Positions 1,490 to 56,305 of a stretch of 64,000 nucleotides of DNA are shown here, piece after piece. The translations under genes were made by a program, and so were the position numbers. A model generated the notes under the pieces. The model did not search any database. It had not been told where the DNA came from and saw only the letters and a list, made by a program, of their open reading frames with translations. The DNA is from an uncultured bacterium (GTDB lineage: Bacteria > Patescibacteriota > Minisyncoccia > UBA6257 > 2-01-FULL-56-20): the NCBI GenBank assembly GCA_963844965.1, contig CAWJQC010000004.1:41609-105608 (forward strand), in the 5' to 3' direction. Positions within the stretch are counted from its first letter, which is position 1. Every line of letters starts with the position of its first letter.

Positions 1490-1908
1490 TTTGTTGCTGG
1501 CAATCCGTAAGCCGGATTCTGTCGCGCCTGCCTGTCGGCAGACGATGCGATCATTTATCTGGGCCCTTGATTGCTCGCGGGCTCAAGCGGCACTTCCACC
1601 TCATCGGCGGACACGGCCTTGCACCCAGTAAGGATTTAGCCGTTTCATCTCCACTTTTTTATCCCTATGGCGGAGCTGGACCGACTAGCTTGGGATTGGG
1701 TCCGTCCGACTTTTTCAAATCGGACCGTTTCTGCTCGCACCTCTATTCTTACGAACGACGGCTGTTAGCCGCTACTATTTTATCCCTCCCCAGTTTTGCC
1801 AGTAATGTCACTGGCAAAACTGGGGAGGGATGGTGTCCGGACTTTCCTCCCTACATTTTCTAGAATTTTAAGAAAATGTAGGGCGATCGCCTAGATTGCC
1901 AGCTAACT
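1490..1908 (-). ncRNA. rnpB: RNase P RNA, bacterial type A
   Basis: Minus strand contains GGGAGGAAAGUCCGGACACC (P4 5' strand) and CGACAGAAUCCGGCUUACGG (ACAGAAnCCGGCUUA, P4 3' strand). P1 pairs GUUAGCUGGCAAUC with GGAUUGCCAGCAAC. P3 hairpin is CUACAUUUUC..GAAAAUGUAG. The overlapping plus ORFs 1276-1863 are spurious. Confidence 0.8.
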
Positions 1909-6442: not shown

Positions 6443-7498
6443 CTAGTTCCCCATCTTCGGCCCGCTTACGTCGCCATTGTTATTATATCCAGACTTTTCC
6501 CACGTGCCTTTGTAATTAATATCATCGGACAACTCAATTTTGGTTATCCATTTTATCCATTTGTATCCCCATTTTTGTTCCGCAACAAGCTGAAACGGGA
6601 AGCCTTTTTCTGCCGGAATGACAACGTTATTCATTTTATAGGCCAAGAGAATATTATTATTTTCAATATAATCCAGGGGCAGTGAGGTGGTATAACCATC
6701 GCTCGCATAAAATATGACAACTTTTGCTTGTGCTTTAATACCGGCCGATTCCAAAAGGTCTTTGACCAAGACCCCTTCCCATAAAATTTTTGCAGTCCAG
6801 CCCTCGACACAATCAAGCTCCACAACCTTAGAATATTTCTGAAAATTTAGAACTTGATCGTAGGTATAACTTTTTGGAGTCTGGACCAAGCCAGAGATTT
6901 CCAATGAGTAATTATCAATGTCTATATATTGAGTTCCTTTAATCGCGTTATCCTGAATATCGGCAATTGATGATAATTTTTCTCCCTGGTACTCCTTAAC
7001 CTGACTATCTGTTAATTGTTTTGTTGCGTAATCAGACGATAATTTAATTCTGATAAAAGAAATGCTTGCGATTCCGGCCAGCACCAAAAAAATTATTAAA
7101 AACCAAATTTTGGTTCTCAAACCTAAAAATTTATTTTCAGGAGTTGCGTTGAGTGTTTTTTCGGAAACTTTAATTCGGCCCAAGACGATATTCATCAATG
7201 CCAAAACTACTATAATAATACCCGACCAATCATGTGCAAAATTTATCCAAAATAACGGCAAAGGCGCATAGCCAATTACATGATACAATTCCAAAAACTT
7301 AAAAACGCCCGTAATAACCAGTATTGGAACAAAAAATATCAAAACCAGTCGAACAATTTTTCTTAATGCAATCACGCTTTTATTATATCGTTTCCATCCG
7401 AAGTCAACAAAAGCGAAGAGCGTCAAAAAACCACCCCGTGTGCGGAGCGGCGGAAATTTACTCCAACGGGTGGACGGTGTTAGAATATAAATCGCCAA
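6443..7498 (-). CDS. molybdopterin-dependent oxidoreductase (MsrP/YedY-like Mo domain) fused to an N-terminal membrane domain; AT-rich
   Basis: C-terminal LDCVEGWTAKILWEGVLVKDLL...GYTTSLPLDY is the sulfite-oxidase-like Mo-pterin fold. The N-terminus has 3-4 TM helices. GC is about 33% against about 54% in the flanks. Confidence 0.55.
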   Translation of the reverse strand: MAIYILTPSTRWSKFPPLRTRGGFLTLFAFVDFGWKRYNKSVIALRKIVRLVLIFFVPILVITGVFKFLELYHVIGYAPLPLFWINFAHDWSGIIIVVLALMNIVLGRIKVSEKTLNATPENKFLGLRTKIWFLIIFLVLAGIASISFIRIKLSSDYATKQLTDSQVKEYQGEKLSSIADIQDNAIKGTQYIDIDNYSLEISGLVQTPKSYTYDQVLNFQKYSKVVELDCVEGWTAKILWEGVLVKDLLESAGIKAQAKVVIFYASDGYTTSLPLDYIENNNILLAYKMNNVVIPAEKGFPFQLVAEQKWGYKWIKWITKIELSDDINYKGTWEKSGYNNNGDVSGPKMGN

Positions 7499-7555
7499 AA
7501 GTTAGAACCTCAAATTGCTTACCGGATAAGCGTTAACCGAGAAAAATTATCGTAG

Positions 7556-41436: not shown

Positions 41437-43541
41437 TTACCGTTTTTTGCCTTCGATAATCAACTGCGCAATGTTCTGCGGCACTGGCTCATAATGGTCA
41501 AATTCCATCGTGAACGCTCCCCTGCCTTGCGTCATGGAACGCAACTCGGTCGCGTAGCCGAACATTTCCGCGAGCGGAACTTTGGCGTCAATCACTTTCA
41601 CGTTGGGCCGGTCGGAAATTTCCTCAATCCTGCCGCGCTTGGAGTTCAAGTTGCCGCTCACCTCGCCCAAAAATTCTATCGGGATGATAACCTGAAGCTT
41701 CATTATCGGCTCCAATATGACCGGCTTCGCGCGCTTCGCCGCTTCCTGCAGGGCGATGGAGCCAGCAATTTTGAAAGCCGCCTCCGACGAGTCAACTTCA
41801 TGGAAAGAGCCGTCATAGAGCGAAACTTCAAGGTCGGTCATCGGGTAGTGGGCAACGACCCCCTTACTCAATGCTTCCACCACACCTTTTTCCACCGCCG
41901 GGATGAATTCGTTCGGAATGATCCCTCCCTGATATCGTCTATGAAAACAAATCCCTTGCCGCGCTCCAAGGACTTCACGCGCAGCCAGACATGTCCGTAT
42001 TGTCCGCGGCCGCCGGATTGCCTGATATATTTGCCTTCCGCCTCCGCTTCGCCCATAATCGTTTCTTTATAGGCAACCTGCGGCCGCCCCACCGAACCCT
42101 CAACACCGAACTCCCGCTTCATCCTGTCAACAATAATTTCCAGGTGCAACTCGCCCATGCCAGAAATAATCGTCTCGCCAGTTTCCAGGTCGCCCGCCAC
42201 GCGGAAAGTCGGGTCTTCTTCCGCCAAGCGGTGCAGGGCAATGCTCATTTTTTCCTGGTCGGCTTTCGTCTTCGGCTCAATGCGAATGCCGATCACCGGC
42301 TCGGGGAATATGATCTTCTCAAGCACTATCGGCGCGTCGGGACTGCAAAGCGTGTCGCCGGTCGTCGTATTCTTCAAACCGACGATCGCCGCGATATCTC
42401 CGGCATGCACTTCCTCCATTTCTTCGCGGTGGTTGGCGTGCATCCGCACCACGCGGCCGACACGTTCCTGCTGGTCCTTCTTGGAATTCAAAACGTACGT
42501 GCCGCGCTTCAAAACGCCGGAATAATTCCGGAAATAGGTTAAAGTGCCGACGTACGGGTCTGTCGCAACCTTGAAAGCCAGCGCCGAGAACGGCTCTTCG
42601 TCCTTGGGGTGCCGCACGATATCGGCGCCGCTCTTCGGGTCAATGCCCTTAACCGGAGGAAGGTCCGTCGGCGCGGGCAAATATTCCACAACCGAGTCAA
42701 GCATAAATTGCACGCCTTTGTTTTTCAGGGCCGAACCGCAAAGCACCGGCACAATTTTGTTGGCAATAACGGCTTTGCGCAAAACGCGGCGCAAATCTTC
42801 AATGTCAAGCTCAGTACCATCCAAATACTTGGTCATCAAGGCATCGTCATTGTCCACAATGCGTTCCACAAGTTCATGCCGCGCCTTCTTCACGTGCACT
42901 TTCATATTTTCCGGCATCGGAATTTCTGTAATCTTTTCGCCATGTTCACCCTCCGAGCCGTACGCCTTTTCGGTTAAGAGGTCTATCATTCCCACGAATT
43001 CACCCTCAAGGCCGATGTTCAACTGCAAAGGCAGTGCGTTCGGCGTGAGCCGTTCTTTGATTGACTGCAAACTTTTTTCAAAGCTCGCACCCAAGCGGTC
43101 AAGTTTGTTAATAAAGCAAATCCGCGGCACGTGGTACTCATCGGCATAGCGCCAGTTCGTTTCCGACTGCGGCTCAACACCTGCGACGCCATCAAAGACG
43201 ACAACCGCGCCGTCCAAAACGCGGAGCGAACGCTTCACCTCCACCGTAAAGTCAATGTGCCCCGGCGTGTCAATCAAATTTATCATATGCTCAAATTTTT
43301 TGTCGCCCTTGCGGTAAGTCGGAATCCAGAACGCCGTCGTTGCGGCGGAAGTAATCGTAATTCCCCTCTCACGTTCCTGCTCCATCCAATCCATCACCGT
43401 GTCGCCCGTGTGCACCTCGCCGATTTTGTGACTGACGCCCGTATAAAAAAGCACCCGTTCGCTCACGGTGGTTTTGCCGGCATCTATATGGGCGATGATG
43501 CCGATGTTACGGACCTTCTCGACAGGATACATTCTAGGCAT
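41437..43541 (-). CDS. fusA: elongation factor G; single-base frameshift near 41880
   Basis: N-terminal ORF has [17 protein letters not shown] and NKLD. C-terminal ORF (41437-41895) holds domains IV-V. The two overlap at 41868-41895. Confidence 0.85.
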
Positions 43542-46124: not shown

Positions 46125-46222
46125 AACAATAATATCCGAAAACCGCGGTCTTTGCCAATTAAGAAAAAACAAATTAAAATGAGCATGTCGCCCTCGTGGT
46201 GAAACTTGCCCTCCCACCTTTG

Positions 46223-46294
46223 TCCCTGTAGCTCAACGGATAGAGCGTGTGGCTTCGAACCACAAGGTTGCAGGTTCAAATCCTGCCAGGGACG
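46223..46294 (+). tRNA. tRNA-Arg (anticodon UCG), embedded between perfect 13 bp inverted repeats
   Basis: GUCCCUGUAGCUCAACGGAUAGAGCGUGUGGCUUCGAACCACAAGGUUGCAGGUUCAAAUCCUGCCAGGGACG. Flanks are CCCTCCCACCTTT / AAAGGTGGGAGGG. Confidence 0.85.
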
Positions 46295-46327
46295 CAAAGG
46301 TGGGAGGGTGAAGATATCATATGTGGC

Positions 46328-46375
46328 TTCGAACCACAGGTTCCAGGTTCGAGTCCTGGCGAGGGCACACACAAC
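46328..46375 (+). other. partial duplicate of the tRNA-Arg 3' half (anticodon arm through acceptor), att-like repeat
   Basis: UGUGGCUUCGAACCACAGGUUCCAGGUUCGAGUCCUGGCGAGGGCA lies 33 nt after the intact tRNA. Confidence 0.5.
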
Positions 46376-46883: not shown

Positions 46884-48278
46884 CTATTTCTGCAAGCTCA
46901 GAATTTTATTCCTGAACGTCAACTTACTCTTGAAGCAAGATAGCAATTCGCGTTTCTCGACCGTGCTGCCCTTTTTGAGAAGATATTTTGCGTACGTTTT
47001 AAGGTCAATTTCTTTAGTGGCCGCTTTCGATCCTTCTCCCAAGACATCGTTCGCGAATTTGCGATATCGTTCCATCTCGTCTTCGAATTTCTTCTGCATC
47101 CCAATCTCACTGATATCCATCTCGTCAATGATAGCGAGAAGTTGAGCGATCAATTCCTCTTCGCGAATGTATCCGCACTTGCAATCCTTATCTTTCGAGC
47201 GTGAGCATCCATAGTACACGTACCGCGCCGTCGTTCCATCCTTGTGCGCCTTATATTTCTCGCACGCACTGATGCCCGATCCGCATAGGCCGCACGAGAT
47301 CAGTTTCGTAAACGAAAATTCCTTTATCTCCGACCTGATGACAAAATCTCGGTGCAGCTGCTCCTGTACTTTATCGAACAGCTCCCGCGAAATGATTGCT
47401 TCGTGCTTGCCGCTGTACCAGTTACCGCTCTTCAGTGGATACTCAAAGATGCCGCAGTAAAATGGATTTTTGAGGATGATATAAATATTGGATAACGAAA
47501 GCACTTTCCCATTCTTTGTTCTGAATTTGATTTCCGACTTCAGCCAATGATAAAGCTTCCGGCCCGACCATTGTTCGTCGGCGACTTTCTGGAGCATTTG
47601 CTTGATGACGGGCGCTCGCAGGGGATCAATGATAACTTCACAAGGACGGTCGGTGCTCTTCTCGTTAAGATACCCTGTCGGTGCGATAGACGGACGCAAA
47701 CCTTGTTCGCACCGCATCCGTAATCCGCGCTTCACGTTTTCCGATTTGTTATCATTCTCAAGTTTCGCTTGGCTGCACAAAATCATCAACATGAATTTCT
47801 CGCTCGGCGAGTTCGTGAATTTCTGGCTGAAGGTTCTGATCTCGATAAGTAATTTTTGATCCATCAAGTCCACCAAGCCGCCAAGGTCGCCCGCGTTGCG
47901 GCTCAAGCGATCCGGCGCCCATGTAAGGATACCGTTGAATTCGCCGGAACGAATATCAATAAGCAACTCGTTAAAAATTTTTCGCTGGCCGACAGCTTTT
48001 GCGGAATGGCTTTCCTTTCTAACTTCGGCGATCTCAAGGTTATCGCGCTCGGCGATTTTCAGCATCTCCTTTATCTGACTATCAATGGAAAGCACTTGCT
48101 GTTCCTCGCTCTCCGTACTTTTCCTCGCATAGAGGCAGTATTTTATTTTTATCGCTTCGGCCTTTGTCGCAGAAACGCCCGACTGATCCCAGCCCTTTGG
48201 TATATTTGTTATTTTCTCCATACCTAAGGGATGCCGCAACGGCGGAAGGAGTCCAGAGCATCCTTGTCGGTAACTCAA
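46884..48278 (-). CDS. large serine recombinase (integrase)
   Basis: N-terminal resolvase domain with YARKSTESEEQ (catalytic Ser), recombinase domain, Zn-ribbon CGLCG..C and coiled-coil C-terminus. Confidence 0.8.
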   Translation of the reverse strand: MSYRQGCSGLLPPLRHPLGMEKITNIPKGWDQSGVSATKAEAIKIKYCLYARKSTESEEQQVLSIDSQIKEMLKIAERDNLEIAEVRKESHSAKAVGQRKIFNELLIDIRSGEFNGILTWAPDRLSRNAGDLGGLVDLMDQKLLIEIRTFSQKFTNSPSEKFMLMILCSQAKLENDNKSENVKRGLRMRCEQGLRPSIAPTGYLNEKSTDRPCEVIIDPLRAPVIKQMLQKVADEQWSGRKLYHWLKSEIKFRTKNGKVLSLSNIYIILKNPFYCGIFEYPLKSGNWYSGKHEAIISRELFDKVQEQLHRDFVIRSEIKEFSFTKLISCGLCGSGISACEKYKAHKDGTTARYVYYGCSRSKDKDCKCGYIREEELIAQLLAIIDEMDISEIGMQKKFEDEMERYRKFANDVLGEGSKAATKEIDLKTYAKYLLKKGSTVEKRELLSCFKSKLTFRNKILSLQK

Positions 48279-48377
48279 AACTCGATATCAGGCGACGAAG
48301 GGGCAAAGAAGGCAAGCAGAGTGATTTCCCCAGCCACCCTCTTTAAGACCATTTATAAACGAGCTATAATAATTCTA

Positions 48378-49343
48378 ATGTTCAGTACCAATGCGCGACG
48401 GGTAATGTGTGTCGTTGCAGGTTTGATTTTGACTTCGCTCGCTTGGATCGGATGCGCGAATTATTTCAACTGGTACGCCGACACAATCGGTCCCGTGGCC
48501 TGGTTTGGCACCCTGTTCCTATTTGCCGCAGCAGGAGTCGGCGCCGGTCTGCTCTTCGAAAAATCGACCAGGGCTCATTATCAGTCTGCAATGACGGCAA
48601 ATCCCCAACTTAAGGAACGAATGGAAACTACTCTCGGAAGGCGCCTCAAGTTTGGCTACGTGCTTGCCGGGCTTTATGTCGCCTATAGGCTTTTCGGATA
48701 TTATCTGTTTTTTGTTCTCGGCTTCTCTTTATCTCCAGCGGCCCATCTTCAACTGATTCTTTCGGCGGTCGTTGAGGCGGTTGTCGCCTTAGTGTGTTTG
48801 TTGCTTTATTGGGAGCGCGGAGAAGATGCCAGTACGGCGAATATAAAAAAGCATTTGCTTGTCTATGTTATTTTCTTCTTCGTTCTCGCAGTGGTTGACG
48901 GTGTCGCACTGCTTGTCTTGAAGCCCGCTTCGGCGGTAGTTCAAACACCCGCAACTCTCGAATCCGCGCTCGAAGCATTTTCCGCCGAGGAATTTTCCGG
49001 GGCAGCAGCAAAAGGGGCGCAAGCGCTACAAGTAAAAGATATGGTCGGGATAGCTTCGGCGCTCCAGAAGATCAATGCTCATTTTAACCAATCATTAACC
49101 AGCGCGGATCTTTATGACATGCGGTACACCATTAATTGGGGCTTGAATGAAGCAATTGCATATTACCAATTCGAGGCCGACGATCAATCCATTTACGCTC
49201 TTCAGCTTACCGAAAATCTTGCGACCAGCAATATTGCCGAGAGTTATTATTCGTTTCCGGCAGGTAGCACCTCCGCTCTAACCGGACAGAGGTATCTCTT
49301 CGTGGCAAACGGATTCAAACGCGGCCGAAACTTTGTTCCTTGA
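48378..49343 (+). CDS. hypothetical polytopic membrane protein
   Basis: Four or more TM helices followed by a soluble C-terminal domain; no family. Confidence 0.4.
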   Translation: MFSTNARRVMCVVAGLILTSLAWIGCANYFNWYADTIGPVAWFGTLFLFAAAGVGAGLLFEKSTRAHYQSAMTANPQLKERMETTLGRRLKFGYVLAGLYVAYRLFGYYLFFVLGFSLSPAAHLQLILSAVVEAVVALVCLLLYWERGEDASTANIKKHLLVYVIFFFVLAVVDGVALLVLKPASAVVQTPATLESALEAFSAEEFSGAAAKGAQALQVKDMVGIASALQKINAHFNQSLTSADLYDMRYTINWGLNEAIAYYQFEADDQSIYALQLTENLATSNIAESYYSFPAGSTSALTGQRYLFVANGFKRGRNFVP

Positions 49344-49522
49344 TACTGCAGGTGCTTATCTCAACCTACCTATGCAATCTCCGATTATGAACGAAGACCT
49401 TTATTATCCTTTAACGGCATCTGCTCCTTCGTGGACAGTGTCCGTCCTCTTTACGAGCACTACGGAGGAGGGACAACAGCAAGTTCACGCTCTATAATAC
49501 CTTTGACGCGAATACCGAGCGG

Positions 49523-49918
49523 GTGACGACGAGTACTTACGTTCCCTCCGGAAACTATTTGCCCTTGTCACCACAATCGCCATCCGTGTCGATGAACGTT
49601 GCTCCGCCTCCCTCAAATTCCTCCCTGAAAATAATTTCTCCTGCCAACGGACAGAAATTGAAGCAGGGGTCAACATACACGATTAGCTGGCAGTCGTCTG
49701 GTGATTTCAATTTTGTCGTCGGGAATATCGTCGCTCCCGTTCCGGGCGAAGGGGGTGTAGGAATATTCCAAGCCCCCGCGACTTCAAGCCGCTATAGCTG
49801 GACCGTGCCGACCGGCTTCCCACCTGGGATGTATAAACTGGGGCTTGCGGGCAGCGATCAAGATTTTGTGAATCATAATTTTGCCTCGTCCAGTGTTTCA
49901 ATCTACATCATTCCGTAG
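49523..49918 (+). CDS. Ser/Thr-rich beta-sandwich (Kre9/KNH-like) surface domain protein
   Basis: ISPANGQKLKQGSTYTISWQSSG ... YSWTVPTGFPPGMYKLGL pattern. Confidence 0.35.
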   Translation: MTTSTYVPSGNYLPLSPQSPSVSMNVAPPPSNSSLKIISPANGQKLKQGSTYTISWQSSGDFNFVVGNIVAPVPGEGGVGIFQAPATSSRYSWTVPTGFPPGMYKLGLAGSDQDFVNHNFASSSVSIYIIP

Positions 49919-49959
49919 TAAAACTTATTTAAGATGAGACGCGGCCTTGGGACACCCTT

Positions 49960-50420
49960 TTAGTGCCTCATTTGTCTCATTTGCATAAAAAAGCCTTATT
50001 TTATGGGCATCGATTTTTCGGAATGAGACACTGCTTTGTATAAATCGGACACGTCCAGAATGGCATTTCTGTGTCCGATTTGTCCGATTTGCCTCCAAAA
50101 TGTTACACACCACAAAGTGCAAAAGTTGTGTAACATTTGTAACATTTTGAGGAAAAGCGGGGGGTTGGAACATGGGAATGGGACACGAAAAATCGACCTC
50201 TTGTGTCCCATTTGTTCCATTTTGTAGAAATGAGCCCTGCTGCGTTACGTTTGCCGCGTTACATTCCGAACGCTCAGAAATCTTTGATTTATCTACCTAA
50301 CAGGACAGCTCCCCAAAAAAGTGCCGCCCTCTCAACTTTTCACATCGCGTTACATTTGTTACATGTTACATTTGATCCCTCCGAAAACCGCGACCGTGAG
50401 CCTTCCAAGGGAAATTTGGG
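49960..50420. repeat. iteron-like direct and inverted repeat field
   Basis: Repeated GGGACAC(N)..TGTCNNATTTG units (49997, 50080-50100 tandem TGTCCGATTTGTCCGATTTG, 50200-50225). Also GTTACATTTGTTACATGTTACATTTG, TGTAACATTTGTAACATTTTG and GCGTTACGTTTGCCGCGTTACATTCC. Confidence 0.5.
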
Positions 50421-50580
50421 GTCGTCCTCAAAAACCCTTATACTGATTGCACAGGGAAAGTCCGCATCCGCGAGGGGGCACAACAAAACTATATCTTTTT
50501 AGTTACCGCACGGTTGTCGTCGAGACGCGTGAAAAACAAAAAAGGAGCTTGCAGAGCTCCTCTATCTAACTCAACCTAAC

Positions 50581-51300
50581 TCAACGGGATGCGGCGGAAA
50601 CATGGGACAGCACGTCCGCAATGGCGTTCACGAGAACTCTTAATCCGTCTCTCCGGTAGAAAATTTCCTCACCGTCTGCCGGTCCGAAGCGATCAATGTG
50701 GCGGTGAGATTTTTTCCTTATGAAACGACTGTTCGAAAGAGCGTGTAAGTTTACCCTTATGTTCTCAATCATTTTCTCGTGATAAGGGTTCTCCCTGCCA
50801 TGCCATTGCTCACAAAGGGCAATCTCGCCTTCGGCGGTCGTAAAAAACAACGACCGAAGGAAGTAATTAAAGTGACGCTCAACGGCAGTCTCAACCAATC
50901 TTTGCAACTCCGGCCCGCTTTTCGCGCTTCCCAAGACCGGTATCGCCGAGATATCGTTACCATACTTCTTTTTGGCCAAGTGGTCCCAGGCATAACCAAG
51001 AGCGATGAGCCAACGTTTGCCGTGGACGGTGGCAAGGAACACGTCGCCGTACTTCATATATAACCTTTCCGAATTATTGCCGTTGACGGCATGGTCGTCA
51101 ACGATCGCGTAGACAGATGACGGAATGGGCAACTCGATTTTCCTACGGGGACGCAATCTATAATCATCCCAAAGTCCGTGAAATACCCCGTAGGTAAGTT
51201 CCTCAGGCGTAATCAACCGCCTGAACGGATGGACAATAGAACGAAGAGCACCGTGCTTTCCTTCCAGCACTTCCTTCAGGCGTTTTCTAAAAATTTTCAT
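50581..51300 (-). CDS. hypothetical protein (about 240-274 aa)
   Basis: ORF only. Confidence 0.35.
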   Translation of the reverse strand: MKIFRKRLKEVLEGKHGALRSIVHPFRRLITPEELTYGVFHGLWDDYRLRPRRKIELPIPSSVYAIVDDHAVNGNNSERLYMKYGDVFLATVHGKRWLIALGYAWDHLAKKKYGNDISAIPVLGSAKSGPELQRLVETAVERHFNYFLRSLFFTTAEGEIALCEQWHGRENPYHEKMIENIRVNLHALSNSRFIRKKSHRHIDRFGPADGEEIFYRRDGLRVLVNAIADVLSHVSAASR

Positions 51301-51628
51301 CCGACCCCCAATCAAAAGATTTTCACTCAAACAACTGCAAGCAGTATAACGAAATTTTTTGAATTTGGCAAATTTGATATTTTTCGCCGCAGAAGCCAAC
51401 GCCACTTCTCGGCCATAAAAATATCCGCAAACGGCAACCGTTTGCGGATTTCAACTTATCGCGACGCACTCTCAACGCACCTCACGCACAAAACACGCAC
51501 CTGCCGCCAAGGAATCTCGCCCTCAGCGGCGAGAAGAAAATCTCCGGCCAATATAAAGCCCATGGATTCAAGAATTCGCGCGCGGCATTTGCAACAATTC
51601 ACTTTCACGCCGACCTTCCTTAGAATTT

Positions 51629-52648
51629 TCAATCGCGCCTCTTCAAAACAGGCGGCTGCTCCTCGCCCTTATTACCTTTATTCTCGCCGCCCTGCTGTGT
51701 CTGGTCGGTCGGCTCGCGCTTCTTAAGCGTCGGCTTTCCTTCGGTTACTTTCCTTCTGCTCGTCACAATTTGCAGCCGATCTTTCACGTCATCAAACTCG
51801 GATGTAGACACGAGATACTGGTCCTTTTTCGGAAGAATTTCCTTAATCTCCTTCTCTATTTTTATAATCCTGTCACCAGTTGGCGGATGGTCGGCAAAAA
51901 CGTTTGGCACGCTTCCGGGTATTCGCCTTTCTTCTTCAATAACCTTGGAAAACATACCTACGTAGGACTCCGGGTCGTAGCCCGCCTTATACATGTACTG
52001 CAATCCCAGATAGTCCGCCTCGGCCTCGTCGTTGCGGCTGAATTTTAAAAACGCAATAGGTATGCCAAAGTTCATGGCCTCCATAGTCGCAATGTAAACA
52101 GGATAAGACATGGGTACGAAGATAAGAGGAATTGTGGCGTATTGGAGGAGCGTGGCTTTTGTCATCTGCGACGCCCAATGCCGGCACGCAACGTGCGCAA
52201 TCTCGTGCGCCATCACTCCGGCAACCTGACTTTCTCCATCGGCAACAAGAAGCAGGCCAGAATTAATATACAAGAACCCGCCAGGGAGAGCGAAGGCGTT
52301 GATTCCGGGCGCATCTATAACTTTCACCGTAAGAGGAACTTTCAGGTCCGAATTCCGCGCAATGTTCTGAGCGACGCGGTTGACATACTCGCCCACCACA
52401 GGGTCGGTCAAAAGTTTCGCCGATTTCTCAACTTCGGTGGAGTATTGTTTCCCGATGGCAATCTCTTTTTCAATGGAAATTATTGACTTGTGCGCGACCT
52501 TGCGGTTGCCGATTTCTTCGGGGTTGTCTTTGCTCTTCTGTCCGTCCGCCGAAGCGCCATAAGCCCTGGGAGGGCACGCCATAATGGCCAAAAGGATAGC
52601 AAGAATAATTACAAGAATCAGGTATCGTTTCTTGACCGTACCGCTCAT
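51629..52648 (-). CDS. M48 family zinc metallopeptidase (BepA/YcaL-like), secreted or membrane-anchored
   Basis: HEIAHVACRH (HExxH), GINAFALPGGFLYINSGLL; N-terminal signal/TM. Confidence 0.7.
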   Translation of the reverse strand: MSGTVKKRYLILVIILAILLAIMACPPRAYGASADGQKSKDNPEEIGNRKVAHKSIISIEKEIAIGKQYSTEVEKSAKLLTDPVVGEYVNRVAQNIARNSDLKVPLTVKVIDAPGINAFALPGGFLYINSGLLLVADGESQVAGVMAHEIAHVACRHWASQMTKATLLQYATIPLIFVPMSYPVYIATMEAMNFGIPIAFLKFSRNDEAEADYLGLQYMYKAGYDPESYVGMFSKVIEEERRIPGSVPNVFADHPPTGDRIIKIEKEIKEILPKKDQYLVSTSEFDDVKDRLQIVTSRRKVTEGKPTLKKREPTDQTQQGGENKGNKGEEQPPVLKRRD

Positions 52649-52881
52649 AAGCCACCTCCTTTTCCAGATTCAACCAACTGCTTCCACTCTACCAAAAAGC
52701 GGGAAAAAATCCAGAACCTGTCCAAGTCGTTGCGGAAAGACGTTTTTGGATATAAAATAATAAAACCGGCCGCGAAGCCCGACATAATCAGCGCCATTCG
52801 GCTTAATAAAAATCCGCCCATAGCTCCCACCTTCGCCGAGGCTTCGGCGGGCAAGCAACTGGCCCCGCACCAAAATTTATC

Positions 52882-52954: not shown

Positions 52955-53084
52955 TGGAAAAATTAAGGATAAATTTGGTGCGGGTTAGACGCCGCAGCTC
53001 TCCTCTTACAACCGCGTAGCGAGGCGAGGATAAAAATCGCCAATTTTTATTTTCGCCGAGCGAGCGGGTGGCGAAACAGGTTTT

Positions 53085-53623: not shown

Positions 53624-56305
53624 ATGAGTGGGATAAAAATAAATCTTTCTCTCAGCGAAATCCCAGGCATCGGCCCGCGTTTTCTGGAACGGCTGGGAAA
53701 ACTCGGCATAAAAACCGTCCGTGATCTCATTTATCATTTTCCGGCCCGCTACGAGGATTTCTCCCAGATATACAAAATTTCCGACGTTGAGCCGGGGGAA
53801 CAGGTAACAATACGTGGCGTTGTTGAAGACACCAAACTGCGGCGGACTTGGAGAAAACACATGACAATCGCCGAAGCCCTGATCCGCGACGATTCCGGAA
53901 CGATACGCGCCATCTGGTTCAACCAACCATATGTTTTGAACACTCTGCGGGTCGGGCGCACGGCGAATTTCGCAGGCAAAATATCCATATCGGACGAGGA
54001 CGAAATTTATTTGAGCCACCCGGCTTATGAAATCGTCGGCAGTCGGGAGTCGGGAACGGAGAAGCAAGAAACAAAACATACAGCGCGGCTCGTCCCCATT
54101 TATCCCGAAACGCGCGGCCTCACATCCAAGGGGTTGAGATATCTGATCCAGCCAATTCTGAAAAACAGCGAACAGCTGGAGGAATGGCTGCCGCCGGAAG
54201 TTCTGCGCGAAAATAATTTTCCCGAAATAAACCTTGCGCTCAGATCCATACACTTCCCCGAAAAAACCGAGGATGCTCTTGTCGCGAAAAAACGCTTCAC
54301 TTTTGAAAACCTGTTCCTGCTGCAACTCGCCAATCTTGAACAAAAATTGAAACTCGCGCGCGAAAAAGCGCCAGTGATCAAAACCGACATAGAACACCTG
54401 AAAAAAATGATCTCGGAACTGCCATACGAACTCACGTTTTCGCAAAAGAAATCATTGTGGGAAATCATCCAGGACCTCGCCAAAAAACAGCCGATGAACC
54501 GCCTGCTCCAGGGCGACGTGGGCTCCGGCAAGACGGTTGTCGCGGCGCTCGCCGCGGTAATTACCGCGGAAAACGGGCTGCAGACCGCGTTTATGGCGCC
54601 AACCGAGGTTCTCGCGAGACAGCATTTTGAAACATTGAAAAAATTATTCGCCGGAATTCCCTCGATCCATCAACCCGTAGTTGGGCTTCTCACGTCAAGC
54701 GAAGCAAAAATCCTCTACGCGACAGACCTTGAATCAAAAATCAAAAAACCGGAGTTGCAGGAAAAAATAAAAAACGGCGAGGTAAAAATAGCCATCGGCA
54801 CGCACGCTTTGATACAAAAAGACGTGGCGTTCGGCAATCTTGCCTTTATCATCATTGACGAACAGCATAGATTCGGCGTCTCACAACGAGCTGCGCTCGT
54901 TCGCGGACAGACGCAGAATGATAATACGCGGACAGACGCTGAACAACTACTATACGAAAAAACGACGTTTGAGATAAGAAAAAGTCTGTTTGAGGTGAGA
55001 AAACAACTGGGCCTTGGTCATAAAGAAGTGGTGTATCAGAAAGCATTGGAGGAGGAGTTCAAGAAATCCGGTGTAATATTTGAGAAAGAAAAGAAAATTC
55101 CTGTCGTTTATAACAAGAAAAAGATTGGCGTTTATCAACCGGATTTTGTCATAGATAATGAAGTAATTTTGGAACTTAAGGCTCTTCCCTTTATCGGCGG
55201 CATCGAAAAAAAACAGCTGTGGAATTATTTGAGGGGTTCGGATTACAAACTCGCGCTTATGGCAAACTTTGGACCGGAAAGATTATCCATAGAGCGGGTA
55301 GTATACGATATTGCGCGGAGTCGGCGGCTGTCAGCGTCCGGTCAGCAACTGTCCGCGCCTATCCCCCACCTCCTCTCAATGTCCGCCACGCCAATCCCAC
55401 GCACGCTCATGCTCACCGTCTTCGGCGATTTGGATATATCGCTCATCACCGAACTTCCCGCCGGCAGAAAAAATATCGTAACAAAAATAATCCCCCCACG
55501 GGGCAGGAGCGAAGCCTATGAATTCATCCGCGGCGAAGTGAGGGCCAGCCGGCAGGTTTTTGTCATCTGCCCCCGCATTGACAAACCGCAGACAGGCGCA
55601 GACCACACGCAGACAAACGCAGACAAGACACAGACAGACGCAGACAATTTTCAGCGGCTGTCTGCGTCAAGTCAGCGACTGTCCGCGTTAAGTCCACGTA
55701 AGTCCGCGTTAGTGTGGGAAGTAAGATCCGTGAAAGAAGAATTTGAAAAATTATCCAAGAAAATTTTTCCGGATTTGCGCGTCGCCATGCTCCACGGCCA
55801 GCTCAAGCCAAAAGAAAAAGCGGGTATCATGAAGGACTTCCGCAACTACAAAATAGATATTCTCGTTTCAACTTCCGTCGTGGAAGTTGGCGTGGACGTG
55901 CCGAACGCAACAATAATGATGATTGAAGGCGCCGATCGCTTCGGGCTGGCTCAGATCTACCAATTCCGCGGACGCGTGGGGCGCGGCGAACACCAATCCT
56001 ATTGCTTCCTGTTCACGGATTCGTCCGCCAAAACTACGCGCGAGCGGCTGCAGGCCGTCCTTGAAGCCAAGAACGGCTTTGAGCTCGCCGAGAAGGACCT
56101 GAAGATCCGCGGTCCCGGCGAATTCCTCGGCACGGCGCAGACCGGCTTTCCCGACACGGCGATGAGCGGCCTCATGAACCCGGAGCTCGTGAAAGCAAGC
56201 CGCGAAGCGGCGGCAAAAATCGTCCAAAAAGATCCGCTTTTCAAAAATTATCCGCTCCTGAAAACCAAATTAAACGAGTTCCGGAAGGAAATCCACTTGG
56301 AGTAG
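53624..56305 (+). CDS. recG: ATP-dependent DNA helicase RecG (893 aa) carrying two in-frame insertions
   Basis: Wedge/OB N-terminus; helicase motifs GSGKTVVA, IIIDEQHRFGV, SATPIPRTL, TSVVEVGVDVPNA, QFRGRVGRG; intact ORF. Confidence 0.85.
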   Translation: MSGIKINLSLSEIPGIGPRFLERLGKLGIKTVRDLIYHFPARYEDFSQIYKISDVEPGEQVTIRGVVEDTKLRRTWRKHMTIAEALIRDDSGTIRAIWFNQPYVLNTLRVGRTANFAGKISISDEDEIYLSHPAYEIVGSRESGTEKQETKHTARLVPIYPETRGLTSKGLRYLIQPILKNSEQLEEWLPPEVLRENNFPEINLALRSIHFPEKTEDALVAKKRFTFENLFLLQLANLEQKLKLAREKAPVIKTDIEHLKKMISELPYELTFSQKKSLWEIIQDLAKKQPMNRLLQGDVGSGKTVVAALAAVITAENGLQTAFMAPTEVLARQHFETLKKLFAGIPSIHQPVVGLLTSSEAKILYATDLESKIKKPELQEKIKNGEVKIAIGTHALIQKDVAFGNLAFIIIDEQHRFGVSQRAALVRGQTQNDNTRTDAEQLLYEKTTFEIRKSLFEVRKQLGLGHKEVVYQKALEEEFKKSGVIFEKEKKIPVVYNKKKIGVYQPDFVIDNEVILELKALPFIGGIEKKQLWNYLRGSDYKLALMANFGPERLSIERVVYDIARSRRLSASGQQLSAPIPHLLSMSATPIPRTLMLTVFGDLDISLITELPAGRKNIVTKIIPPRGRSEAYEFIRGEVRASRQVFVICPRIDKPQTGADHTQTNADKTQTDADNFQRLSASSQRLSALSPRKSALVWEVRSVKEEFEKLSKKIFPDLRVAMLHGQLKPKEKAGIMKDFRNYKIDILVSTSVVEVGVDVPNATIMMIEGADRFGLAQIYQFRGRVGRGEHQSYCFLFTDSSAKTTRERLQAVLEAKNGFELAEKDLKIRGPGEFLGTAQTGFPDTAMSGLMNPELVKASREAAAKIVQKDPLFKNYPLLKTKLNEFRKEIHLE
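54903..55357 (+). mobile_element. in-frame insertion inside recG encoding a GxxExxY-type PD-(D/E)xK domain, bounded by inverted repeats
   Basis: Left end is a tandem CGCGGACAGACGC (54903, 54927). Right end is GGCTGTCAGCGTCC...CAGCAACTGTCCGCG (55349-55357 is the reverse complement of CGCGGACAG). Encoded segment: GLGHKEVVYQKALEEEFKKSGVIFEKEKKIPVVYNKKKIGVYQPDFVIDNEVILELKA...LMANFGPERLSIERV. Confidence 0.5.
55588..55712 (+). mobile_element. second, cargo-less in-frame palindromic insertion of the same repeat family inside recG
   Basis: CAGACAGGCGCAGACC...GACAGACGCAGACAATTTTCAGCGGCTGTCTGCGTCAAGTCAGCGACTGTCCGCG. Translates as QTGADHTQTNADKTQTDADNFQRLSASSQRLSALSPRKS between conserved RecG blocks. 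Confidence 0.45.

Follow-up and report, generated by a model that had tools for sequence, protein, structure and literature searches.

A field of short repeats in the window (the whole stretch of DNA analysed, 64,000 nucleotides) appears to be the upstream array of a composite non-coding module of Patescibacteria. We identified this module in about 100 Patescibacteria chromosomes, in gene contexts that are unrelated to one another. It consists of one to seven repeats that we call W units, a gap of 1-25 nt, a G element of approximately 95 nt whose tail resembles the end of a tRNA and, usually, an intrinsic terminator, with the W units in a fixed orientation that points to the tRNA-end-like element and terminator. 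Our best explanation, held tentatively, is that proteins bind the W units to control a gene for a tRNA-like small RNA, and that islands also use this gene for attachment. The module has no match in Rfam or in the searched literature and is, on this basis, previously undescribed; full-text searches, including one for the 16-mer TGTCTCATTTGTCTCA, returned no description of it.

Anatomy of the repeat field

Positions 49931-50374 of the window hold six repeat units (U1-U6), and the field leads straight into the conserved G element of about 95 nt at 50386-50481, which the first-pass annotation of this DNA had missed. U1-U4 share a common plan, an inverted repeat with a tandem copy of its right arm: an 11-bp arm (AAAT-NNN-ACAC), a 16-20 bp spacer, an inverted arm (GTGT-NNN-ATTT) and the tandem arm copy 9 bp further on. 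The formula for the window units is [AAAT-NNN-ACAC] - 16-18 nt - [GTGT-NNN-ATTT][GT-NNN-ATTTG]. The central word varies from unit to unit (CTC, CCG, AAC, CCC/TCC, TAC), and the GGGACAC and GTTACAT repeats, which a first-pass annotation of this DNA had listed as separate families, are variable centres of one unit type. The features of the field and the G element, all on the forward strand, are:

49931-49983 (+): U1, word GAGAC, with outer left arm AAGATGAGAC; kept in L008, L018 and L107
49948-49954 (+): U1 inner left arm, GGGACAC
49963-49973 (+): U1 right arm, GTGCCTCATTT
49974-49983 (+): U1 tandem copy, GTCTCATTTG
49987-50031 (+): B-like block AAAAAGCCTTATTTTATGGGCATC, then an inverted right-hand copy of the U1 word; invariant alignment columns
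50022-50031 (+): the right-hand inverted copy of the U1 word, AATGAGACAC
50042-50091 (+): U2, word CGGAC; AAATCGGACAC, 18 nt, GTGTCCGATTT GTCCGATTTG
50098-50149 (+): U3, word GTTAC; AAATGTTACAC, spacer, GTGTAACATTT GTAACATTTTG
50176-50224 (+): U4, words GGGAC/GGAAC; GAATGGGACAC, 16 nt, GTGTCCCATTT GTTCCATTTTG
50238-50265 (+): U5, GTTACAT-based, tandem TGCTGCGTTACGTT / TGCCGCGTTACATT; kept in L008, L018, L106 and L107
50238-50300 (+): U5 together with a second B-like block, AGAAATCTTTGATTTATCTACC
50346-50374 (+): U6, GTTACAT-based, the unit closest to the G element; CGCGTTACATTTGTTACATGTTACATTTG
50386-50481 (+): G element (nhmmer profile match, E 2e-8 and 1.7e-9; family alignment)
50390-50402 (+): A block of the G element, GCGACCGTGAGCC
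50429-50445 (+): B block of the G element, CAAAAACCCTTATACTG
50454-50481 (+): C block of the G element, GGGAAAGTCCGCATCCGCGAGGGGGCAC, with a tail like that of a tRNA from T-loop to 3' end

The repeats lie where the first-pass annotation had placed them, and comparison with shuffled and expected counts confirms their excess over chance. Allowing at most one mismatch, TGTNNNATTTGTNNNATTT occurs four times in 64 kb, each time within 49964-50222 (0.12 expected; none of 100 shuffles reached four). Exact matches to TGTNNNATTTG number nine in 64 kb, against 2.3 expected, and six of the nine fall in the field. The words are not dispersed through the other intergenic DNA of the window, as they would be in the refuting case that the annotation itself named. 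The GC content of the field is 38-43% compared with 47-55% in its flanks; it is only mildly AT-rich and contains no strongly AT-rich block.

About 470 bp (49962 to 50373) is homologous to loci in other genomes, and in L018 and L107 the homology includes the G element. U6 is the best-conserved part of the field: one 24-mer within it is identical in six other loci, and the cross-genome alignment shows a 28-nt invariant block in this region. The word class of U3 is also present in L003, L012, L097 and L011.

Distribution across the Patescibacteria

A search for AAATNNNACAC-N14-20-GTGTNNNATTTGTNNNATTT among 185,579 species genomes returned 104 stretches, with approximately 0.5 expected by chance according to our own estimate. 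Nearly all of the matches are from Saccharibacteria, Parcubacteria/Paceibacterota, Microgenomates, and Doudna- or Kerfeldbacteria. The host of the window is itself a member of the Patescibacteria, as its SecY is 76-96% identical to Liptonbacteria/Paceibacterota proteins. The unit pattern has no matches in the 2.9 million viral contigs of IMG/VR. The form AAATGAGACAC...GTGTCTCATTTGTCTCATTT is that of, for example, a Saccharibacterium carrier.

The arm consensus and the spacer length are kept phylum-wide. Family spacers are 17-20 bp long, with a peak at 18-19, and when aligned from the right they yield the consensus cAAAtACCCTTtTATA directly before GTGT, placing a TATAGT-like hexamer 17-18 bp from ATGAGA. 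The word classes GTTAC, GGCAC, GGAAC, GGTAC, CGGAC, CGAAC and TGGAC agree in all three arms and recur in distant lineages; in about 40% of units the words disagree between arms. The fullest form of the unit, W<W<-7 bp-W>W>, spans 51 bp and was found in L043 and L082, the W unit otherwise being a 40-bp dyad. In multi-unit fields, the units are 57-75 bp apart, with no cargo in between.

The window field shares 73-83% nucleotide identity with L008, L018 and L107, where the flanking genes are unrelated and cannot be aligned. Unit number and order differ among these related fields: the CGGAC unit, second in the window, comes last in L107 and L018, and the window field has no GGCAC unit.

The tRNA-end-like G element

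The G-element profile identified 65 copies in 60 loci, with the window copy at 50386-50479. Nearly all copies lie 1-25 nt downstream of the tandem arm pair on the same strand, and the gap is merely 1-4 nt in several loci; copies without a W unit are the second copies in L100, L092 and L065. In many loci, as judged by eye, a hairpin and T-run follow the tail. In the window, the only hairpin downstream of the G element is at 50541-50563.

Features of tRNAs kept by G elements are the T-loop motif, its spacing to a downstream (C)CA, and a "GC". Among the copies that a crude pattern could score, six clearly have CCA exactly 11 nt past the T-loop-like motif, many more are seen by eye, and most other copies retain just the "GC" at the CCA position. 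The T-stem is not formed, and neither ARAGORN nor the Rfam tRNA model called a tRNA on the G elements of the window and 30 loci. In the window and 18 loci, no Rfam 15 family matched the field or the G element at its gathering threshold, and permissive searches (E of 5-10 or below) gave nothing relevant on the field or on 7 loci; the only Rfam finds were tRNAs, a weak ssNA-helicase match and, at some loci, LOOT RNAs located elsewhere. RNAalifold found no consensus structure for the G element, and single-sequence minimum-free-energy folds are weak and inconsistent. Also present in the element is a palindromic core, GGTTCTAGACC, and copies of the Saccharibacteria type contain a fourth, inverted copy of the word that can pair with the right arm. 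Terminators and conservation suggest that the G element may be a functional RNA.

Several identities for these sequences were considered and rejected. The G element matches no tmRNA, SRP or 6S model, is of the wrong size and has no tag reading frame. A riboswitch or leader function does not fit the genes downstream of the module, which are mutually unrelated. The variable triplet is mostly GNN on the left-arm strand, which had suggested an anticodon, a codon or something like a T-box. Such a function does not fit the common occurrence of AAG and AAA, which are not bacterial anticodons, or the position of the triplet within a paired arm.

The recombinase island

The field lies inside a genomic element, as the first-pass annotation had supposed, and this island encodes a recombinase. 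Genes and other features around the field are:

46222-46295 (+): intact tRNA-Arg(TCG), left edge of the island (ARAGORN, Rfam)
46322-46366 (+): partial tRNA 3' half (anticodon arm, T-arm, acceptor strand), with an Rfam sub-match at 46307-46359 and a 17-nt exact anticodon-arm repeat
46884-48278 (-): large serine recombinase with Resolvase, Recombinase and Zn-ribbon domains (Pfam; PHROG integrase)
48231-49343 (+): 370-aa membrane protein, cargo ORF
49523-49918 (+): 131-aa Ig-like protein, cargo ORF, ending 13 nt before U1
50541-50563 (-): GC-rich hairpin and T-run, terminator of the 239-aa ORF
50581-51300 (-): orphan 239-aa ORF, listed for context only

The field sits between convergent genes (49523-49918 on the forward strand and 50581-51300 on the reverse), which also agrees with the earlier description. 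Pfam and PHROG searches of all ORFs from 46.3 to 52.6 kb identified the serine recombinase, the Ig-like protein and an M48 peptidase, and two ORFs have no family; among 5.8 billion proteins, the 239-aa ORF found no homologue but itself. The partial tRNA, which includes the T-loop, lies between tRNA-Arg and the 3' end of the recombinase gene, and its tail GAGTCCTGGCGAGGGCAC resembles the C block of the G element at 50454-50481. We regard this fragment (46322-46366) as a candidate left attachment junction.

The layout of tRNA fragment and recombinase is repeated in L036 and L111. Overall, the 3' end of the recombinase gene always faces a T-loop-like fragment, in four independent layouts (the window, L036, L024/L101 and the IMG/VR locus L111). 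Recombinase homologues adjoin modules in L036, L042, L105, L097, L024, L101 and L102; in L036, L042, L105 and the window, members of the same clade are encoded 1.5-1.7 kb upstream of the unit in the opposite orientation, and in L101 the recombinase and cargo are flanked on both sides by modules of a unit plus a mini-G.

Comparison of L013 with L036 fixed the left breakpoint only. An empty-site comparison for the right end of the island was uninformative, as the M48 peptidase homologues are Acidobacteria-like and not syntenic, and a direct-repeat search around the other recombinase loci gave no clear att repeats. All-against-all clustering of flanking ORFs identified no universal neighbouring protein as a candidate binder. 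Zn-ribbon proteins of approximately 215 and 337 aa recur upstream, at 4-5 loci each, and have no informative family.

Proposed function of the module

At the arm positions of 160 distinct units we counted 1632 Watson-Crick, 42 G·T, 33 A·C and 53 other combinations; on neither strand is there an excess of wobble among the mismatches. Because the arm mismatches have no G·U bias, the repeats act as DNA rather than as RNA, and the first-pass view of dense, non-random direct and inverted repeats behaving as DNA-level recognition sites is borne out.

We propose that the W units are double-stranded DNA sites for one or more sequence-specific proteins, each unit offering a two-fold symmetric pair of 11-bp half-sites and a third, tandem half-site. 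Units of the common form would bracket a sigma-70-like promoter, with a -35-like ATGAGA in the left arm and, 17-18 bp away, a -10-like TATAGT that would fall at the junction of spacer and right arm. Under the control of the W units, the G element would be transcribed into a small tRNA-like RNA. The T-loop-like tail of the G element may further be where islands of one large-serine-recombinase clade attach or insert, a use that would parallel that of tRNA and tmRNA genes elsewhere. If the tail is such an attachment point, this would explain the location of the window copy at the right end of an approximately 4-kb recombinase island by tRNA-Arg. What the sequences show is the anatomy and its conservation, the constant direction of the units relative to the G element, the non-wobble character of the arms, the terminators, and the physical link to the recombinase and to gene cassettes; protein binding, promoter activity, transcription of the G element and its use for attachment are inferred.

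Elsewhere, islands attach at tRNA and tmRNA genes, and partial-tRNA repeats form arrays between cargo modules, for example in the tycheposon islands of Prochlorococcus. The module resembles these systems in that a terminator comes after a T-loop-like to 3'-end-like tail, a T-loop fragment beside a real tRNA adjoins a recombinase gene, and accessory cargo lies between directly repeated copies of the target, which accumulate in tandem arrays. Unlike those sites, the repeated target of the module is not a tRNA (ARAGORN and Rfam were negative and the T-stem is unformed), the module has its own upstream W-unit array, and whole elements of approximately 95 nt are duplicated rather than 3' fragments alone.

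The module also resembles the multi-operator promoters of stable RNAs and small RNAs, which are tandem promoters flanked by half-sites for repressors or activators: its half-sites lie on either side of a -35/-10-like spacer of 17-18 bp, its array is directly upstream of a short terminated element, and the number of upstream modules varies. It differs from them in the unusual distance between half-sites (about 29 bp centre to centre), in the equally unusual tandem third site, and in a predicted product RNA with no Rfam family.

Some observations stand against the proposed function. A sigma-70-type promoter has TTGACA-like and TATAAT-like hexamers 16-18 bp apart. The promoter-like arrangement (ATGAGA, 17-18 bp, TATAGT) is that of the family consensus, but a consensus promoter scan of the window field found no site at 9/12 matches, and U2-U4 lack the -10-like spacer end. 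Fields contain up to five or six word classes, and to read them a very small genome would have to encode either several specificities or a single tolerant binder. Discordant arm words fit recombinant hybrid sites as well as they fit decayed operators. Further points against are the gap of 1-4 nt between arms and G element at several loci, the G copies that have no W unit, the restriction of an exactly spaced CCA to some copies, and the negative structure and Rfam searches of the G element.

The candidate phyla radiation represents a large share of bacterial diversity that has only lately become genetically tractable, and its cis-regulatory DNA, small RNAs and mobile-element mechanics are almost unexplored. 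A motif of approximately 50 bp that ranges from Saccharibacteria to Parcubacteria and Microgenomates, and that is tied both to a tRNA-end-like element and to one recombinase clade, provides a starting point in the search for a DNA-binding factor common to the phylum and for a new small RNA, as well as a marker of genomic-island boundaries and assembly breakpoints. Together with the recombinase, it is possibly a natural site-specific integration system for genetics in Patescibacteria.

Alternative explanations

The alternative that survives best, although we consider it somewhat doubtful, is that the W unit (a dyad of approximately 40-51 bp) and/or the palindromic G core are DNA substrates of the large serine recombinase. 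Modules would then mark the 3' ends of mobile gene cassettes, as in integrons or in tycheposon-like arrays of partial-tRNA repeats, with the recombinase gene leftward, cargo rightward and a site after each cassette, and a field of several units would have built up from sites that had recombined or decayed. Within single genomes, directly repeated copies of the module do bracket co-oriented accessory cargo. Those in L067 and L074 are 98% identical over 190 bp, lie at contig ends and have RhuM-like and ArsM/CcdA cargo, and further cases are L100 (GIY-YIG plus MsrA), L092, L084, L102 and L065; in L101 recombinase and cargo lie between two modules. The upstream neighbour is co-oriented in 59 cases against 11, its stop codon is 0-30 nt from the left arm (often a TGA within AAATGAGACAC), and neighbours are enriched in DGR RT/bAvd, ParB-methylase, GIY-YIG and recombinase genes. 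Hybrid units, in which left and right words differ, resemble attL/attR products; pairing without wobble fits DNA hairpins or duplex sites; and the B-like remnants between field units resemble decayed G elements.

A likeness to integron attC sites can be seen in the imperfect palindrome directly after the stop of a cassette ORF, with conserved ends and a variable centre, in its DNA-level character without RNA wobble, and in the co-oriented cassettes with a divergent recombinase at one end and many arrays with no nearby recombinase. These attC-like characteristics (post-ORF palindrome, co-oriented arrays) hold by analogy only, as units also stack without cargo. Unlike integrons, the enzyme here is a large serine recombinase and not an IntI tyrosine recombinase. 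The R''/R' cores of attC (RYYYAAC/GTTRRRY) are absent, the module arms being AAAT...ACAC / GTGT...ATTT, and the module has an extra tandem arm, cargo-free stacks of units, and an attached G element and terminator.

The W unit is a 40-bp dyad (51 bp in L043 and L082); a large-serine-recombinase att site would be an imperfect dyad of approximately 40-50 bp, centred on a dinucleotide, at the ends of an element that encodes the recombinase. Known att sites of these enzymes are single sequences of about 40-50 bp whose inner and outer motifs differ and which lack accessory arrays, and this tells against the recombinase-substrate reading. So do the occurrence of a recombinase within 3 kb at only about 8 of approximately 105 loci, the implausibility of five word classes for one recombinase, and the spacing of field units 57-75 bp apart without cargo; no empty/occupied site pair was recovered for junction mapping.

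In a more specific form, which we think unlikely, the Patescibacteria would have an integron-like cassette system in which the large serine recombinase captures, excises and reshuffles cassettes and W units. Each cassette would end, by the same improbable scheme, in W-unit palindromes and a tRNA-T-loop-like G core, and the window field would, with equally low likelihood, be a stack of such sites ending an active element of approximately 4 kb. If true, this would be a second, independently evolved integron-type architecture.

It is quite improbable that the field and G element are transcribed as a structured RNA, either the 3' UTR of the upstream gene or a long non-coding RNA, in which inverted arms form hairpins, pair alternatively with the tandem arm and provide processing, stability or protein-binding signals. 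In accord with this possibility, the upstream gene stops at the first arm, and a terminator comes after the G tail and not ahead of the module; a 561-nt segment of the window folds better than its shuffled versions (z = -3.5); and the right arm of the Saccharibacteria type can pair with the inverted word copy in the G element. The mismatch counts argue against it, as G·U is not in excess (42 versus 33, plus 53 of transversion type), and the stems have loops of 16-20 nt that are not conserved. The folding results for the G element point the same way, and Rfam gives no match for the RNA beyond a single sub-threshold one, to RF03070 (ssNA-helicase), at 21.3 bits against a gathering score of 41.5 (E = 0.25 in a 771-nt search). 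There is a likeness, in that the minus strand of U6 is a hairpin plus AUGUAACAUGUAACA and RF03070 is a hairpin plus tandem heptamers UGUAGCAUGUAGCA, but given this score and the absence of a helicase gene we do not claim membership.

Very improbable is the view that the field is non-functional debris, i.e., tandem insertion and excision scars beside a tRNA-like hotspot. The degeneracy of many arms would fit such scars, as would the differences in unit number and order between related fields (the moved CGGAC unit and missing GGCAC unit). These are outweighed by 73-83% identity across genomes whose neighbouring genes do not align, by long invariant blocks such as the 28 nt of U6, and by an arm consensus and spacer length held throughout the phylum; moreover, Patescibacteria genomes are highly streamlined.

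The first-pass annotation had assigned the repeats to an integrated plasmid-like element, as the iterons of its replication origin or as its partition site, and this we now find scarcely credible. Direct and inverted copies of one word close by, recognized at the DNA level, are the classical iteron and operator pattern, the field is mildly AT-rich and within a recombinase island, and a ParB-N-methylase gene adjoins the module in L047, L063, L092 and L103. In theta-replicating plasmids, direct repeats are bound by Rep monomers and inverted half-repeats by dimers. Unlike such plasmids, the island encodes no Rep, ParA, ParB or ParR (Pfam, PHROG), and the units have two direct copies with a 9-bp period and differing words, rather than three or more near-identical, helically phased direct repeats of 17-22 bp. 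BLAST found no similarity to 72,556 plasmid and 50,697 phage records, in line with the null result for viral contigs. The module is chromosomal in approximately 100 species across the phylum, right after ordinary genes, with a fixed polarity toward a tRNA-end-like element and terminator that an origin or centromere does not predict. Cumulative GC skew falls monotonically over the 64 kb, with no inflection near 50 kb, and a chromosomal origin or terminus was rejected for the same lack of a switch. The ParB-N-methylase fusions near the four other loci are of the nuclease/methylase type and are not partition operons.

Repeat units in the window

The segment 49930-50380 is non-coding. To its left an Ig-like ORF of 131 aa ends with its stop codon at 49918, and to its right is a convergent ORF of 239 aa (50581-51300). 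Four sites in the 64-kb window match TGTNNNATTTGTNNNATTT with at most one mismatch, every one within 49964-50222 (0.12 expected), and TGTNNNATTTG occurs exactly at nine sites, six of them inside this field, versus 2.3 expected window-wide. Thus, the repeats reported by the first-pass annotation are real and local, and within the window their words are not dispersed through other intergenic DNA. The two repeat families into which it had divided them are replaced, using a repeat finder, by a single design: AAAT-NNN-ACAC as the left arm, a spacer of 16-18 nt, GTGT-NNN-ATTT as the inverted right arm and, 9 bp on, a direct repeat of that right arm. We refer to this as the W unit, and to its variable arm centre as the word. 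The field is not an assembly artefact, as L001, assembled independently from a different read set, matches 49518-51873 with one mismatch.

Repeat units of the field in the window
U1, 49931-49983: word GAGAC, common design
U2, 50042-50091: word CGGAC, common design
U3, 50098-50149: word GTTAC, common design
U4, 50176-50224: words GGGAC/GGAAC, common design
U5, 50238-50265: GTTACAT-based variant
U6, 50346-50374: GTTACAT-based variant

The Rfam ssNA-helicase motif matches 50357-50413 on the minus strand below threshold (21.3 bits vs a gathering score of 41.5), a match that stems from the tandem TGTAACA heptamers of U6 beside a short hairpin.

Distribution across genomes

The pattern AAATNNNACAC-N14-20-GTGTNNNATTTGTNNNATTT (22 specified bases) was scanned against one genome per species for 185,579 species. 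It matches 104 stretches, where about 0.5 are estimated by chance, and has zero matches in 2.9 million viral contigs. The matches are labelled almost wholly as Saccharibacteria, Parcubacteria/Paceibacterota (including Kaiser-, Staskawicz-, Nealson-, Yanofsky-, Giovannonibacteria and others), Roizman-, Doudna- or Kerfeldbacteria, or "Patescibacteria group"; the few with other taxon labels are mostly on short contigs. The commonest word is GAGAC (AAATGAGACAC ... GTGTCTCATTTGTCTCATTT), and GGGAC, GGAAC, GTTAC, GGCAC, GGTAC, CGGAC, CGAAC, TGGAC and GTGAC also recur.

The G element

Downstream of the tandem arms, most pattern matches have a conserved sequence of about 95 nt, the G element, usually with a hairpin and T-run 3' of its last block. 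A profile identified 65 copies distributed over 60 loci; almost every copy follows, at a distance of 1-25 nt, a tandem arm pair on its own strand. In the window the element (50386-50479, E = 2e-8) begins 20 nt past the U6 tandem arm match.

Conserved blocks of the G element
A block: (tTA)GACCCCGACCGAGAC
B block: cAAAAAnCCCTTAtA
C block: GGTTCTAGACC-NNN-NNNNNNN-G-C(CA)

In its geometry the C block corresponds to the part of a tRNA between the T-loop and the 3' end: after a GGTTCNAGNCC motif come 3 + 7 + 1 nt and then CCA (many copies) or at least "GC". The A block repeats the C-block core in direct orientation and co-varies with it (e.g., GACCGAG/GACCGAG, GACCCAC/AACCCAT, GACCTAGAT/GACCTAGAT and GACCGGT/GACCGGT) and contains a left-arm-like GAGACAC. 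Identification of the element as a tRNA itself was rejected, with no call by ARAGORN or the Rfam tRNA model and an unformed T-stem. No Rfam family matches it, even at permissive thresholds.

Genes for LOOT RNA (RF03000) occur near the W units and G element, together the module, in four of 21 distinct loci scanned (L080 886-1007; L033 2077-2199; L010 1682-1813; L047 3761-3879); that in L080 is divergent from the unit and just 67 nt away. This hints that small non-coding genes cluster near the module.

Conservation of multi-unit fields

Window positions 49962-50373 share 73-83% nucleotide identity with fields at three other loci (L008, L018 and L107). In L018 and L107 homology extends into the G element, detected by the profile or visible in the sequence; L008 is divergent at that position and the profile detects no G element there. 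A U5-B-U6-G core is kept in L106. The protein genes flanking homologous fields are unrelated: L008 has one for a diversity-generating retroelement (DGR) reverse transcriptase, and L018 one for a secreted protein of 207 aa. The repeat units behave as cassettes: a GGCAC unit present in L008, L018 and L107 is absent from the window, and the CGGAC unit, second in the window, is last in L107 and L018, directly before the G element. Unrelated lineages also carry multi-unit fields ending in one G element.

Multi-unit fields in other lineages
L012 (Yanofskybacteria): GGTAC, GAGAC, GTTAC
L002 (Staskawiczbacteria): six units
L013/L036 (Paceibacterota): >800 bp; TGGAC, GCCAA, GAGAC twice, CGAAC, GTTAC

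At the left edge of the Paceibacterota field is a box of about 38 bp, CCTGCAG-N8-GCG-N-AAAAGG-N-TATTGTGCA (L013 1357-1394 and 2186-2222; L036, reverse complement, 7497-7535). In L013 it recurs right after the G-element terminator, and direct repeats bound the entire field-plus-G unit of about 830 bp.

Probable DNA-level recognition and promoter-like features

Across 160 distinct units, left and first right arms are 92.7% Watson-Crick paired, and the mismatches (42 G·T, 33 A·C, 53 others) show a wobble excess on neither strand. RNAalifold found no consensus structure for G elements, whose folds are weak and inconsistent. Given these results, we treat the arms as probable duplex-DNA (or DNA-hairpin) recognition elements, not RNA helices. 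Shuffled versions of the window segment fold less well than the segment itself (z = -3.5), as is expected of any set of inverted repeats. Divergent words agree in all three arms and reappear across lineages, which indicates discrete classes of W site; arm words are discordant in about 40% of units.

Across the family the spacer measures 17-20 bp (peak 18-19). It follows a consensus of its own, cAAAtACCCTTtTATA|GTGT, which puts a TATAGT-like hexamer 17-18 bp downstream of the left-arm ATGAGA. In Saccharibacteria-type copies the stretch from the tandem arms to the A block contains an extra box, TAGCTTAAAAT or TGCTAGAAT. Counting against a promoter reading are the lack of any consensus promoter at 9/12 matches in the window's own field, the missing -10-like spacer end in U2-U4, and an arm-to-G-element gap of just 1-4 nt in several loci.

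Gene neighbourhood

No single neighbouring gene is conserved across loci, and the genes on the downstream side vary widely. Of the upstream neighbours, 59 are oriented as the module is and 11 are not. The stop codon of the upstream neighbour usually falls within 0-30 nt of the left arm, and often it is the TGA contained in AAATGAGACAC; thus, the module occupies the place where a terminator for that gene would be expected. Accessory or mobile functions are enriched among the neighbours.

Recurrent neighbours of the module
Large serine recombinase of the window clade: L036, L042, L105, L097, L024, L101, L102
DGR reverse transcriptase with bAvd: six loci
Small GIY-YIG protein directly after the G element: seven loci
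ParB-N-methylase: four loci

The DGR genes (a reverse transcriptase with an LGNLTSQ motif and a divergent bAvd) are upstream of the W unit in L008, L043, L082, L086, L099 and L015, ending 50-155 nt from it in five loci and about 1.8 kb away in L015. The module comes after DGRs as it does after other cargo.

Direct module repeats surround co-oriented cargo within single genomes. The module is at both ends of L067 and at the terminal end of L074, contigs with RhuM-like and ArsM/CcdA cargo whose end copies are 98% identical over 190 bp. In L100 and L092 modules bracket GIY-YIG plus one gene, and direct repeats are also present in L084, L102 and L065; the second copies in L100, L092 and L065 are without W units. 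On short contigs the module is often within about 250 nt of the contig end (e.g., L010, L033, L039, L062, L067, L074, L076), which suggests that short-read assemblies break at it because it is repeated in several copies or varies between strains.

Serine recombinase, tRNAs and island extent

At L036, L042 and L105, as in the window, the recombinase gene points away from the field, its start lies 1.5-1.7 kb upstream, and the intervening cargo differs. In L101 a W unit and minimal G element lie on either side of the recombinase plus cargo. The L013 and L036 fields are 86% identical, and only L036 has the recombinase, immediately left of the field. In the window, L036, L024/L101 and an IMG/VR contig, a T-loop-containing fragment always faces the recombinase 3' end.

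Sequences on the recombinase 3' side
Window: tRNA-Arg, 27 nt, partial tRNA 3' half (46322-46366)
L036: tRNA-Gly, hairpin, G-like repeat
L024/L101: mini-G C block
IMG/VR contig (64%-identical recombinase): tRNA-Asp, then GTTCAAGTCC fragment

The tail of the partial tRNA in the window, GAGTCCTGGCGAGGGCAC-ACACAACA, resembles the C block AGTCCGCATCCGCGAGGGGGCAC-AACAAAAC. From these comparisons we infer that T-loop-like sequences of real tRNAs and G elements may be attachment sites for this recombinase clade. The candidate island in the window would then start near 46.3 kb and end at the C block near 50.47 kb, and the field would lie at its right end. Relatives of the M48 peptidase gene sought for the right junction were Acidobacteria-like, and none was syntenic.

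The partial tRNA-Arg copy is identical to the intact gene over 17 nt of the anticodon arm and has its own T-arm and acceptor strand. As the latter mismatches the intact tRNA-Arg 5' strand, the copy derives from a different tRNA-Arg-like sequence. The tRNA-Arg lies between perfect 14-nt inverted repeats (46209-46222 / 46295-46308; CCCTCCCACCTTTG / CAAAGGTGGGAGGG), and tRNA-Lys between 14-nt inverted repeats that match at 93% (52864-52877 / 52971-52984); these would lengthen the precursor acceptor stem.

The M48 (BepA-like) peptidase (51629-52648, minus strand), which has a signal peptide, shares 65-73% identity with Terriglobia/Acidobacteria-named proteins, whereas for SecY, also encoded in the window, identity is 76-96% and the matched proteins carry the names Liptonbacteria, Paceibacterota or Patescibacteria, the last being the group to which the window's genome itself belongs. 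This suggests that the peptidase may have been horizontally acquired. The tRNA-Arg to tRNA-Lys interval (46.3-52.9 kb) may be foreign throughout.

Possible function of the module

We tentatively favor a reading in which W units are predicted protein-binding DNA sites and would serve as the control region for the G element, a putative gene for a small tRNA-like RNA. The T-loop-like tail of this gene would double as a landing site for serine-recombinase islands, which would explain the duplications and mobile neighbourhood. The main rival, which we rate somewhat less likely, takes the palindromic W units, the G core or both to be cassette-boundary recombination sites themselves, in an integron- or tycheposon-like system. 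Nothing resembling the module was found in Rfam 15 or by full-text literature searches, including one with the unit's 16-mer.

RNA-structure and debris models are less likely still, as is the origin model. The plasmid origin or partition site proposed by the first-pass annotation fails on several grounds: no Rep or Par gene was found, there is neither a skew switch nor a strongly AT-rich block, plasmid and phage similarity is absent, the arm pairs are non-identical and 9-bp-spaced with no phased iterons, and polarity toward a terminated tRNA-like element is fixed in about 100 chromosomes.

Other features of the window

The RecG helicase (53624-56305, plus strand, 893 aa) has a PD-(D/E)XK nuclease domain (PF13366, residues 447-558) inserted between its DEAD and Helicase_C domains. 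The EF-G frame (41868-43541, minus strand) reaches only 557 aa, matching positions 1-531 of the 691-position model, so the gene may be split, frameshifted or interrupted. Also identified was a class A RNase P RNA (1493-1902, minus strand), scoring 100.2 bits, just over the gathering score of 100, which is consistent with a reduced, divergent RNase P RNA of the Patescibacteria type.
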